A stretch of DNA of 20,179 bases from positions 1 to 20,179 of the IMG/VR virus record IMGVR_UViG_3300005748_000132. The stretch is one strand, 5' to 3'. The position numbers and the translations under genes are program-made. The notes under the pieces are model-generated. The model was not told where the DNA came from. It did no database searches and worked only from the letters and a program-made list of their open reading frames with translations. Shown here in pieces: positions 8,017 through 10,572 of this stretch (positions within the stretch are counted from its first letter, which is position 1; each line of letters begins with the position of its first letter). This stretch comes from a virus (Duplodnaviria; Heunggongvirae; Uroviricota; Caudoviricetes).

Positions 8017-8143
8017 CAAGCTTCCTTTTATTGTAAAAGCCTTTTATTAGTCTTGCTTAGGACTGAGTCACCTTGCTCTCATGCAGAACATAAGCCAGTC
8101 AGGTAGTAGTCGCCTGATACTTCAAGAGTTCTGCATACAGTAT

Positions 8144-8172
8144 AAGATATCACAATTCTCCTCTTATGTCAA
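8144..8172 (-). promoter_or_regulatory. sigma70-type promoter
   Basis: TTGACA-17 bp-TATCTT with a TGTG extended -10. Confidence 0.6.
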
Positions 8173-8199
8173 GTCCTTTCTTTAAATAAGTTTAAGACA

Positions 8200-8507
8200 A
8201 TAGAAGCGGCATTATCTACTACTAGATAACTAAGTTTAAACTCTTTGCTCAAACCATGAAGCTTAAAGGATTCTCTTTCGAGGTAGTACCAAATGCTGCT
8301 TCCGAAGTAGGCTCCGCTAGTTTCCTACACACATCTTTACAAAGGTTGTGCCTATGGTGACACTTATACTCTCACTTTCTCTCGTCCTACTCAGGTTTCC
8401 CTTACTCGACGGTTACTGATAAGAGTCCCTTAGCTTTTATTTATTGTCGAACTAAGGACTGTAATCTCGACTTACTTTAGGTTACTGCCAAAGTAGATAA
8501 ATGCTAC
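8200..8507 (-). ncRNA. Candidate structured non-coding RNA (family not recognised)
   Basis: No credible ORF. Has its own promoter, three GAAA-tetraloop hairpins, several 7-11 bp stems, a long-range helix (8292-8302 with 8203-8213) and a possible loop pseudoknot. Confidence 0.6.
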
Positions 8508-8512
8508 TGCCC

Positions 8513-8541
8513 AGATTAGCACAAAAATTGGTTTTTTGCAA
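8513..8541 (-). promoter_or_regulatory. sigma70-type promoter for the candidate ncRNA
   Basis: TTGCAA-17 bp-TAATCT with a TGTG extended -10. Confidence 0.6.
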
Positions 8542-8607
8542 GTATTTTTTACAAGTGTCTGTAATTACAAGGATATAGTAAATAAAGCTTATAATACACC
8601 CTTAAGA

Positions 8608-8620
8608 TTACCAACTATAT
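8608..8620 (+). promoter_or_regulatory. Late-promoter motif variant TTACCAACTATAT
   Basis: 11/13 match to TTGACAACTATAT, 18 nt upstream of the first gene of the packaging operon. Confidence 0.5.
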
Positions 8621-8638
8621 ATCAGAAAGGAGAAAACT

Positions 8639-9388: not shown

Positions 9389-9733
9389 ATGCAACTTGAT
9401 TTAGAACTAGAATTAAAAGCTTTACAGGAAGAGATTGTAAAACTCAAGTCAGAAAACGCGACTCTAAAAGAGGTTATTGTTGAGAACGGTTTGGAAGCTG
9501 AGATTCCTGATATCGACCTTGTTTCTGTTGAAGAGAAAGCTTGTATAGACGGAATAGGTCATTTAGCTAAATTACTAGAGTCAGGTAATTTTACAAAAGA
9601 CGACGTTAAAGCTTTTTCTGATTTACATAACACACTCAGTAAGGTGAGAGGTAAATCTCCTGCTGGTAAAAGTAAGGTTAAATCTGCTGAAGTTAAGACG
9701 TTGTTAAAAGCTATTAGTGGAGATAAGAAGTAG
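9389..9733 (+). CDS. Probable terminase small subunit
   Basis: 114-aa helical protein with a basic C-terminus just upstream of TerL (with the HNH gene between). Call is positional. Confidence 0.5.
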   Translation: MQLDLELELKALQEEIVKLKSENATLKEVIVENGLEAEIPDIDLVSVEEKACIDGIGHLAKLLESGNFTKDDVKAFSDLHNTLSKVRGKSPAGKSKVKSAEVKTLLKAISGDKK

Positions 9734-10572
9734 TGTCTAGGAAATATTTAGACTACAGCTCAGAAGGTAGAAAATGTTCTAAATGTGGAGAATATAAACT
9801 TTGGTCTGAGTATCATAAATCTAAAAAAGAACCTTCTGGATACAAATCGGCTTGTAAGTCTTGTAGAAATAAAGATAAAAAAAAGTATAATAAAAAAATA
9901 TCGGATTCTAAACCTGAATTTACTCACATTTTAATGAACCCTAACGGTAGACATTGTAGAGACTGTAATGAGTTTAAACCTCTTAGTGAGTATAATAAAT
10001 CGGACAGACATATGTTAAACAGAATGTATCACTGTAAGGAATGTAGAAACAAAGAAATGAGAGATAGGTTTAAAGACCCCGATATTAAAAAAAGGAGAAA
10101 CGAACTCACAAGAAAGTGGAAACAAATACCTGAGAACAAAAAAAGAATATTAGAAAGCAGTAAAAGATATCGTCTGAAAAACAAAGAAAAAGTCAAAGAA
10201 AGATGTGCTAAATATAGAAAGGAGAATCCTGATAAAGTGAGAGAAGCTCAACGTAGATACAATGAGAAAAATCCTCATGTTAGAAAACGTCGTAAAATGA
10301 GAAGACGGAAGACAGAAAAACAAGCTCTAGTGTCATGGAGAAATGAAGATAAAATTAGACAAATTTACAAAAAAGCTAAAGAACTTCAAAAAGAAACTGG
10401 GGTAAAATATCATGTCGATCACATCATACCTCTTAACCATCCTAATGTTTGTGGACTTCACGTAGAAGCTAATTTACAAGTAATAACAGCTTCTGAAAAC
10501 TGTGCGAAACAAAATAGGTTCGATAATACTTATGAAAACGAATCATGGAGAATGGAGATTTATGCAGAGTGA
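9733..10572 (+). CDS. HNH endonuclease with two C4 zinc-finger repeats (homing endonuclease-like)
   Basis: CSKC...CKSC and CRDC...CKEC repeats, a basic helical linker, and the C-terminal HVDHIIPL...GLHVEANLQVITASENCAKQN HNH motif. GTG start overlaps the previous stop. Confidence 0.9.
   Translation: MSRKYLDYSSEGRKCSKCGEYKLWSEYHKSKKEPSGYKSACKSCRNKDKKKYNKKISDSKPEFTHILMNPNGRHCRDCNEFKPLSEYNKSDRHMLNRMYHCKECRNKEMRDRFKDPDIKKRRNELTRKWKQIPENKKRILESSKRYRLKNKEKVKERCAKYRKENPDKVREAQRRYNEKNPHVRKRRKMRRRKTEKQALVSWRNEDKIRQIYKKAKELQKETGVKYHVDHIIPLNHPNVCGLHVEANLQVITASENCAKQNRFDNTYENESWRMEIYAE

Follow-up and report, generated by a model that had tools for sequence, protein, structure and literature searches.

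A conserved structured RNA with three predicted pseudoknots at the divergence point of an uncultured marine phage genome

Results

An ORF-free gap separates the two arms of the phage genome

The window analysed here, that is, the whole stretch of DNA under study, consists of the first 20,179 bases of an 84,179-base phage record of IMG/VR. The terminal repeat ascribed to this record measures only 40 bp and is probably an assembly overlap. When the record is drawn as a circle, small leftward genes run from 8019 through the record ends to ~44,421, forming a leftward arm of 48 kb, and a rightward arm that includes the terminase, portal and capsid genes runs from 8639 to ~44,420. Between them lies an ORF-free gap of 619 nt (8020-8638), the single point at which leftward and rightward arms diverge. 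Given the extents of both arms, the RNA element described below therefore sits in the sole divergence gap of the genome. The G/C skew of the stretch that holds the element agrees with that of the leftward-transcribed genes, and strand composition flips at the divergence point.

The packaging genes present in the window encode a large terminase of the T4 type (Terminase_6N) and a portal protein of the P22/SU10 type. The nearest cultured phage is distant, with a best terminase identity of 28%, and neither the gap nor the window was matched at the DNA level among GenBank phages. Comparison with PHROG left nine of the ten flanking ORFs without a family, the exception being an endonuclease-like protein that adjoins the terminase, and no partner protein for an RNA was evident among these ten ORFs. 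Look-ups of sequencing runs with queries of 3 kb and 411 nt returned no RNA run among the matches; one DNA run, a marine metagenome, matched a small fraction of the query words.

The initial annotation of this DNA had described positions 8200-8507 as a non-coding stretch, and the reading frames agree with it. Indeed, each of the six frames between 8020 and 8640 carries 9-17 stop codons, of mixed kinds and with no bias towards a single one, which rules out a hidden gene or a recoded stop codon in the gap.

The element is conserved in related uncultured phages

Relatives of the phage were gathered through their terminase from JGI metagenomes, ENA, NCBI and Logan assemblies, and in all of them the corresponding position is occupied by an ORF-free gap of 440-990 nt. 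Searches with nhmmer and covariance models identified 14 homologs of the element in contigs of related uncultured phages, whose terminases are 57-83% identical to that of the window, so that the family counts 15 members including that of the window. In every carrier the element is found in one copy per genome, on the minus strand of the divergence gap. Five of the members were found by the models and left out of model building. The 15 sequences contain close pairs and the effective sample is hence smaller than 15.

We also used the neighbouring 94-aa protein as a query, which led to one ENA contig (L009) and to no relatives in IMG/VR. In L009, identity to the window is 96% over the right half of the gap, 42-71% over the left half of the element and ~78% over the flanking genes. 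The 5' domain of the window's element is closest to that of L009 (95%) and the central domain, which is 111-114 nt long in ten members, is closest to that of another contig, L040 (85%). The 5' and central domains have been exchanged between phages as modules, as expected for self-contained folding modules.

Exact-sequence scans of IMG/VR, including one with a 20-mer from the element, recovered only the window's own record, and the terminase relatives found in that database either carry a different element, of the L005 type described below, or lack the gap. A search of IMG/VR with the motif pattern CTAGTAGTAG...CTATTGTC gave eight chance matches, none of them recognised by our models R1 or R2. 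A pattern built on pseudoknot B found nothing in IMG/VR and a single match in GTDB genomes, which lies inside a 1038-aa ORF without profile match.

Promoters flank the RNA on both sides

The features of the locus are collected in Table 1. At the upstream side, the TTGnnn and TAnnnT hexamers of promoter P1 are equally spaced in 15 out of 15 members, 12 of which also have the TG extension. The 8-nt discriminator is variable and sequence conservation restarts at the A/G of the putative +1. That the RNA stands behind a promoter of its own, as first proposed from the window, is thus borne out by the position of P1 and by the point at which conservation starts. At the downstream side, the last conserved block, CUAUUGUC, carries two changes or fewer in 11 of 13 members, and the 23-45 nt after it form an A/U-rich spacer of variable sequence. 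Both ends of the RNA have been placed from conservation and are predictions in this sense; the boundaries drawn initially (8200-8507) fall within a few bases of ours (8196-8505).

The spacer leads to a second promoter, P2. A promoter scan scores it at 10 of 12 matches together with a TG, and a TTGAC -35 element was present downstream of the RNA in all 13 members inspected. From its sequence, P2 is predicted to drive the leftward early genes. The distant member L016 has a tRNA-like gene with an insert after P2.

Table 1. Predicted features of the RNA and its flanking promoters (positions in the window).
Feature	Position	Strand	Description
Promoter P1	8513..8541	-	-35 TTGCAA (8541-8536), 17-nt spacer, TG-extended -10 TGTGCTAATCT (8523-8513)
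RNA gene	8196..8505	-	~310 nt, from putative start A8505/G8504 to end of conserved CUAUUGUC; nhmmer and covariance-model matches in 14 contigs
Pseudoknot A	8473..8504	-	Hairpin H1 (8495-8490 / 8478-8473); 5'-terminal GC (8504-8503) with H1-loop GC (8488-8487)
Pseudoknot B (H-type)	8426..8471	-	S1 GUCGA/UCGAC (8471-8467 / 8450-8446) interleaved with S2 CUUAG/CUAAG (8456-8452 / 8433-8429)
H3 domain	8369..8425	-	H3 (8425-8420 / 8374-8369); H3a (8411-8408 / 8386-8383); H3b capped by GAAA (8402-8393)
Hairpin H3.5	8348..8363	-	GUGUC/GGCAC, loop ACCAUA
Central domain	8243..8344	-	Closed by H4 (8344-8339 / 8248-8243); holds H5, three-way junction and capped hairpin
Hairpin H5	8307..8328	-	GUAGG(A)/(G)CCUAC; 5/6 pairs change both sides, 94.9% of cells paired
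5' arm GAAGCAGCAUU	8292..8302	-	Two covarying partners, the A arm and the B arm
Hairpin CUC-GAAA-GAG	8273..8282	-	Within the three-way junction; stem covaries
A arm GCUUC	8258..8262	-	Forms nested helix H6A with the first half of the 5' arm, as its proximal partner; all six pairs change both sides
Hairpin H7	8212..8229	-	Loop AGUAGU(A) nearly invariant, kept in 13/13; stem covaries
B arm AAUGCCGCUUC	8203..8213	-	Distal partner of the entire 5' arm; long-range helix crossing H4 (pseudoknot C)
3' motif CUAUUGUC	8196..8203	-	Last conserved block
Promoter P2	8144..8172	-	TTGACA, 17-nt spacer, TG, TATCTT; outside the RNA, marks its downstream limit

Covariation identifies a structured RNA of the minus strand

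The fold of the element's sequence taken alone is not significantly better than chance on either strand (z = -1.2 for the minus strand and z = -1.9 for the plus strand), so the helices initially read by hand are no evidence by themselves. On the other hand, the RNAalifold consensus of ten full-length members reaches -28.3 kcal/mol, compared with -0.5 ± 0.9 kcal/mol for column-shuffled alignments (z = -32). With z = -18 for the reverse complement, the minus strand is the better folder.

We then counted paired cells and both-side changes in the alignments of each domain. In the 5' domain (15 sequences) 95.7% of cells are paired, against 73.5% after shuffling and 31-54% (about 35%) when the pairs are slid along the alignment, and both-side changes occur in 16 of the 23 pairs. 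For the central domain (13 sequences) the share of paired cells is 90.5%, against 69.8% when shuffled and 37-48% when slid, with both-side changes in 22 of 27 pairs. Taken together, 38 of the 50 modelled pairs change on both sides. The five members outside model building keep the pairs and add new compensations. For helices beyond the nested models, we asked whether cognate arms form more stable duplexes than arms combined across members, and all 12 helices tested passed (p ≤ 0.0006). The collection of homologs and the search for covariation that had been proposed along with the original reading have yielded 14 homologs and strong covariation.

The alignments also reveal the strand. We observed 71 G-U cells and only 11 A-C cells, an asymmetry that assigns the RNA to the minus strand, and one U-G pair in H3 is invariant (15/15). 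The novel, multi-domain, structured RNA that the initial annotation placed on the minus strand is hence upheld by a family of 15 members, a conserved length, pervasive compensatory changes and the excess of G-U over A-C, and we regard the element as almost certainly a genuine conserved RNA family.

The opposite view, in which there is no functional RNA and the conservation reflects signals in the DNA (operators, promoters, packaging or origin sites) or a structure of single-stranded DNA, is hardly credible. The gap does hold promoters, and CUAUUGUC, which is conserved without covariation upstream of P2, could be a DNA-binding site. However, protein-binding DNA accounts neither for 38 pairs with both-side changes, nor for three interleaved pseudoknots, nor for G-U outnumbering A-C by 71 to 11 on one strand, and the conservation starts at the putative +1 of a promoter.

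The predicted fold contains three pseudoknots

The alignments predict a fold of ~12 helices that includes hairpins with GNRA caps, a symmetric internal loop of GAGUA facing GAGUA, and three pseudoknots (A, B and C). At the 5' end, hairpin H1 (UACUUU/AAAGUA), already recognised by hand, is supported by covariation, with both-side changes in four of six pairs and 96.7% of cells paired. The pairing of its loop with the 5' terminus would form pseudoknot A. All 15 members have G-C at pair 1-18, and at pair 2-17 ten have C-G and five U-A, with no mismatches. With 2-3 bp, pseudoknot A is the least certain of the three knots. A terminal helix joining the 5' and 3' ends, GGGCAGUAG with CUAUUGUCU, had been predicted from four sequences. 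We dropped it because its 5' strand lies upstream of the putative start and the register is lost in other members.

Pseudoknot B follows. The loop sequence UCGAC had been proposed to pair with either of two GUCGA copies; pairing with the one at 8471-8467 forms stem S1 of this H-type pseudoknot, in which 100% of cells are paired and the fourth pair occurs as four Watson-Crick types, whereas pairing with the copy at 8406-8410 is not conserved. Stem S2 is the core of the helix first drawn as AGUCCUUAG/CUAAGGGACU, and it is this core that covariation confirms. It is 5-7 bp long, longer in the window phage, and almost all of the 15 members have a sequence of their own there; cognate arms reach -7.8 kcal/mol against -1.7 kcal/mol for non-cognate ones (permutation p = 1e-4). 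Loop 3 of the pseudoknot is conserved and A/U-rich.

In the H3 domain, five of the six H3 pairs change on both sides and 100% of cells are paired. Helices H3a and H3b covary as well, the cap is a GNRA tetraloop in most members, and the twin GAGUA strands (8407-8403 and 8392-8388) form the symmetric internal loop. The domain is shorter in L016 and L042. Next to it, the stem of hairpin H3.5 (3-6 bp) differs in sequence and length in nearly every member (cognate arms -5.3 kcal/mol, non-cognate -0.8 kcal/mol, p = 0.0002), while its loop, AAAUA or ACCAUA, is conserved.

The central domain is closed by H4, which spans ~100 nt and shows both-side changes in four of its first five pairs. Model R2 matched 13 members at E ≤ 6e-16. 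An additional helix, H4b (8336-8333 / 8254-8251), had weak support, 2-3 of 13 cells being unpaired at each pair. The loop of the junction hairpin (8273-8282) is a GNRA in about half of the members and UUAAUU in others. This hairpin is one of three GAAA hairpins seen in the window sequence at first; it covaries, as does the one at 8393-8402, but the third (8318-8327) is not conserved and falls inside H5. Both this third hairpin and the pairing of the 8406-8410 copy conflict with covarying helices. The same fate befell two further hand-read helices, GCACA/UGUGU and GUUUGAGC/GUUUAAAC, which are not conserved and clash with covarying ones. Further downstream, hairpin H7, originally read as UUAUCUA/UAGAUAA (8229-8212), is backed by covariation, one of its pairs occurring as A-U, C-G and U-A (cognate test p = 0.0002).

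Furthermore, invariant motifs in the alignments suggest tertiary contacts that are beyond the reach of covariation, possibly between UACU and the AGUA loop and possibly involving CUAUUGUC.

One segment has two covarying partners

The long-range helix GAAGCAGCAUU/AAUGCCGCUUC (8302-8292 / 8213-8203), part of the initial reading, also covaries. In 12 of 13 members it has 10-11 bp interrupted by a single mismatch or bulge at the centre, and in L040 it has 8 bp. Its 5' arm has a second partner: the first five bases (8302-8298) pair with the A arm (8262-8258), and the whole length pairs with the B arm. Duplex energies with the A arm are -7.9 kcal/mol for cognate and -4.9 kcal/mol for non-cognate arms (p = 0.0002), and with the B arm -11.6 and -6.6 kcal/mol (p = 0.0002). 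Covariation supports both partners in 12 of 13 members, and in L040 only the distal eight bases are spanned by the B arm.

In ensembles restricted to nested structures, the B pairing is dominant in nine of 13 members and the probability of H4 in these is near zero. As H4 and the B-arm helix both covary, H4 being one of the helices with the strongest support, the native fold must contain the two of them, as a knot (pseudoknot C). The A pairing may be a folding intermediate or a second functional state, or it may be present together with the distal half of the B pairing. Having two alternative partners, the GAAGC segment may take part in a strand exchange: the proximal A arm would pair first, while the RNA is still being transcribed, and completion of the 3' end would allow the distal B arm to displace it and close pseudoknot C. 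This covarying alternative pairing provides a specific and testable folding hypothesis. No terminator, U-tract or ribosome-binding site coincides with either of the alternative pairings of the 5' arm.

An unrelated element occupies the site in a sister clade

One clade nested among the carriers in the terminase tree lacks this RNA (it is sister to L040, with support of 83/96 and a long-branch outgroup). At the same site, on the opposite strand and behind a rightward promoter, this clade has an unrelated and nearly invariant element of ~400 nt, the L005-type element, which reads toward the late genes. In its predicted fold 11 pairs change on both sides, at least 10 of which are paired in all five members. 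The profiles R1, R2 and nhmmer gave no cross-match between the window RNA and the L005-type element. Since the sister clade has swapped in an element on the opposite strand, the slot has been kept and the orientation relative to the early operon has not.

The RNA falls outside known families

We compared the locus with the 4227 models of Rfam 15, both at gathering thresholds and at a permissive E ≤ 10. At gathering scores there was no match in the whole window, and five related loci gave two tRNA matches only, outside the element. At E ≤ 10 the window, L027 and L041 produced unrelated chance matches only, with no shared family: a tmRNA fragment (8 bits for a threshold of 47), PART1_2 and a snoRNA. 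The identity of the element as a tRNA or tmRNA is rejected by this score and by ARAGORN, which found neither kind within the 20-kb window. With no match at gathering scores and inconsistent permissive scans, the suggestion that the RNA lies outside known families, for which a comparison with Rfam had been advised, holds. Kinship with the T7 A1-A3 early leader was likewise dismissed (model R1 with filters off, best score 5.6 bits).

These comparisons bear on the idea that the RNA is a ribozyme or a ligand-sensing RNA, for instance one that cleaves itself at its own 3' end or a large aptamer for a host metabolite. Pseudoknots, GNRA caps and invariant unpaired junction bases (UAUAAG, UACUU, UACUR, the AGUAGU loop and CUAUUGUC) are typical of catalytic or ligand-binding cores, and 3'-end formation is otherwise unexplained if there is no terminator. 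Yet no ribozyme or riboswitch model of Rfam 15 matches any of the three members, even at E ≤ 10, and we identified neither a cleavage-site signature nor an expression platform. We thus consider this idea improbable.

GOLLD and ROOL are comparable in kind. Like the window RNA they are phage-borne, several hundred nucleotides long, rich in helices and pseudoknots, supported by covariation, without assigned function and untied to a single downstream gene. They measure ~580-800 nt, compared with ~310 nt here. They also differ in that their covariance models do not match the element at gathering scores or at E ≤ 10, in that no tRNA gene, a frequent neighbour of GOLLD and ROOL in phage genomes, is present in the 20-kb window, in that no conserved self-complementary loop hinting at homo-oligomers was noticed by eye, and in that it is so far confined to one marine phage lineage. 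Both are large, ornate RNAs of phages and prophages with Rfam families and cryo-EM structures (PMC12286853).

The packaging RNA of phi29 is likewise a structured RNA that a phage expresses from an early promoter, and packaging genes adjoin the element in the window. This pRNA is 120-174 nt long and works with a phi29-type packaging ATPase on protein-primed DNA. The window RNA, on the other hand, is ~310 nt long, has no Rfam match and is transcribed away from the packaging operon of a phage with a T4-type large terminase and a P22/SU10-type portal. In our alignments, inspected by eye only, we noticed no conserved free loops with self- or cross-complementarity, the trait behind the pRNA ring. 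Nothing was found in support of a pRNA-like role in packaging, which the initial annotation had mentioned as a precedent only.

Full-text literature searches yielded no description of this RNA. The largest published screen of IMG/VR intergenic regions reports only candidates of 29-151 nt present in at least three IMG/VR regions (Fremin et al., PMC10690425), and a fragment of the RNA could be among them. Judged from its sequence, the RNA would represent a new family within a known kind, that of large structured phage RNAs without assigned function.

Discussion

A free-standing RNA or a leader of the early transcript

The position of the RNA suggests how it would be made. Host sigma-70 RNA polymerase would initiate at A8505/G8504 from P1, which would place the RNA among the first transcripts of infection, and the functional RNA would end near 8196, just upstream of the separate promoter P2. 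As the terminase of the nearest cultured phage is only 28% identical, the use of P1 by the host polymerase is deduced from a consensus.

The reading that we favour, with a probability of roughly 45%, is that of a free-standing, compact early RNA that acts in trans through its three-dimensional shape, binding, sequestering or scaffolding a host or phage protein, and that is neither an antisense RNA nor the 5' UTR of an early gene. Four observations argue for it. The early genes have their own strong promoter, P2, at 25-45 nt past the last conserved base; the leader of 117 nt that separates P2 from the first gene lacks conservation, even in L009; the 5' and central domains have different nearest relatives; and the sister clade has an unrelated element at the same site on the opposite strand. 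This last argument, however, assumes that the two elements are functional analogues.

We found no intrinsic terminator after the RNA, and one terminator-like site in the next 8 kb. Transcription from P1 may hence continue past P2 and reach the early genes, in which case the RNA would be a leader. It could then act in cis on the P1 early transcript, by rendering transcription resistant to terminators, as do the put sites of HK022, by affecting mRNA stability or processing, or as an A/B switch that gates entry from P1 into the 48-kb leftward arm. The RNA immediately follows an early promoter and shares its strand with the leftward arm, no terminator intervening, and it contains a segment whose two covarying partners exclude each other, as is typical of expression platforms. 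In the first respect it also recalls HK022 putL and putR, which are folded RNAs encoded right behind a host-type early promoter and in the sense direction of a long operon. However, P2 stands between the RNA and the first ORF, the single terminator-like site in the next 8 kb makes a read-through device seem unneeded nearby, the alternative pairings mask no terminator, U-tract or ribosome-binding site, and the replacement element of the sister clade points the opposite way. The put RNAs have ~70 nt, two hairpins and no pseudoknots, and the window RNA, with its ~12 helices, three pseudoknots and ~310 nt, is far more elaborate; moreover, it is separated from the genes by a second promoter and has no terminators close by that would need to be overridden. 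A leader acting in cis is consequently possible but, in our view, rather unlikely.

The location of the RNA brings to mind a further function, that of a transcript at a replication origin. An RNA made from P1 at the divergence point could form a primer or an R-loop, as ColE1 RNA II does, its fold governing formation of the hybrid. The place where arms diverge and strand composition flips is a usual one for an origin, the RNA is followed by an A/T-rich spacer, and the orientation of such a transcript would be free to differ between lineages, as observed. RNA II, too, is a structured transcript of several hundred nucleotides made from a constitutive promoter, where replication could plausibly start. 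Nevertheless, the flip in composition is fully explained by gene orientation, and iterons, initiator-binding repeats or a conserved hybrid-forming tract were not found, nor were other features of an origin identified. Three pseudoknots, GNRA caps and conserved junction bases exceed the known needs of a primer, RNA II is not known to have a comparable set of pseudoknots, and no promoter like that of the antisense RNA I was noticed opposite the window RNA in an unsystematic look. The odds of an origin transcript therefore seem small.

A large RNA in the first moments of infection

Large RNAs with several pseudoknots and strong covariation are rare, and those that have been studied are ribozymes, riboswitches, cores of ribonucleoproteins or self-assembling cages. 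The RNA described here is phage-encoded, stands behind the first host-type promoter and is apparently exchangeable with an unrelated element, which points to a function in early infection at the RNA level. Its carriers are abundant, uncultured marine phages with no cultured relative. As the RNA is compact (~310 nt) and 15 diverse sequences define most of its base pairs, it can be used directly for probing, cryo-EM, pull-downs and in vitro transcription.

A broader proposal, which we put forward as speculative and doubtful, is that the divergence point is a dedicated slot for a large functional RNA of the first moments of infection, occupied in the greater part of the lineage by the triple-pseudoknot RNA and in one sub-clade by the unrelated RNA of ~400 nt on the other strand. 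If the two RNAs of this slot are functional analogues, they would constitute a new kind of RNA-based device for host takeover or timing without known counterpart, which might be a ribozyme, a sponge or scaffold for proteins, or a timer based on co-transcriptional strand exchange.

Mosaic structure of the RNA and layout of its genome

Comparison of the window's structured RNA with its copies in related uncultured phages yielded different closest relatives for its two domains. Identity to locus L009 is 95% in the 5′ domain but only 51% in the central domain, and identity to locus L040 is 85% in the central domain but only 45% in the 5′ domain, with the boundary at window position 8362 (alignments A12 and A13). 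The RNA is a mosaic in sequence, implying that phages have recombined where the two domains meet.

With a length of just 40 bp, the direct terminal repeat of the full 84,179-nt record (G000) resembles an overlap left by assembly. On the circular map every gene belongs to one of two arms, which run apart from 8020-8638 and meet near 44,420.

P2, the promoter of the leftward early genes, gives their transcript a 117-nt leader that is missing or unalignable throughout in L009, the closest relative. At the start of this leader is a 9-bp hairpin, AUGCAGAAC...GUUCUGCAU, with a smaller hairpin nested inside it (window 8080-8137, minus strand). On the other flank, the stretch immediately 5′ of the first rightward gene (8560-8627, plus strand) contains TTACCAACTATAT and is repeated at G000 29271-29330 and 35166-35233 with 75-77% identity. 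The 279-aa protein immediately preceding the large terminase gave PHROG matches to endonuclease VII, HNH and Lar-like families, and not to small terminase.

Other elements in related phages

Because the Rfam tRNA matches in L016 and L013 span 150-168 nt, both are predicted to be tRNA-like genes carrying a long insert. The one in L016 lies directly downstream of a P2-like promoter, itself 3′ of that locus's RNA copy. Relatives L042, L027 and L041 carry selfish elements.

Features of the window and of related loci
Feature	Location	Strand
279-aa protein	window 9733-10572	+
Sister-clade element	L005:3966-4376	+
Sister-clade element	L012:806-1218	
Sister-clade element	L013:4993-5397	
Sister-clade element	L018:317-727	
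Sister-clade element	L021:1128-1540	
Rfam tRNA match	L016:5131-5298	-
Rfam tRNA match	L013:4790-4940	-
Portal gene, 1040 aa, Hom_end/Hint (intein) domains	L042:6529-9651	+
GIY-YIG gene after portal	L027:8654-9466	
HNH/NUMOD4 gene among early genes	L041:2451-2951	

An unrelated element in the sister clade

In a sister clade, whose terminase is ~67% identical to the window's, the divergent gap holds an ORF-free element of ~410 nt that is nearly invariant among members and unrelated to the window's RNA. The window's genome lacks this element, which lies on the plus strand, preceded by a rightward promoter (TTGTCA-17-TG-TACAAT). The element matches no Rfam family, and neither of the covariance models built from the window's RNA family (R1, and R2 for the central domain) matches it. 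Both sides have changed at 11 pairs of its predicted fold (for example, CGAU...AUCG to UAGC...GCUA), at least 10 of which are paired in all five members. The element probably represents a second structured RNA that has not been described before.
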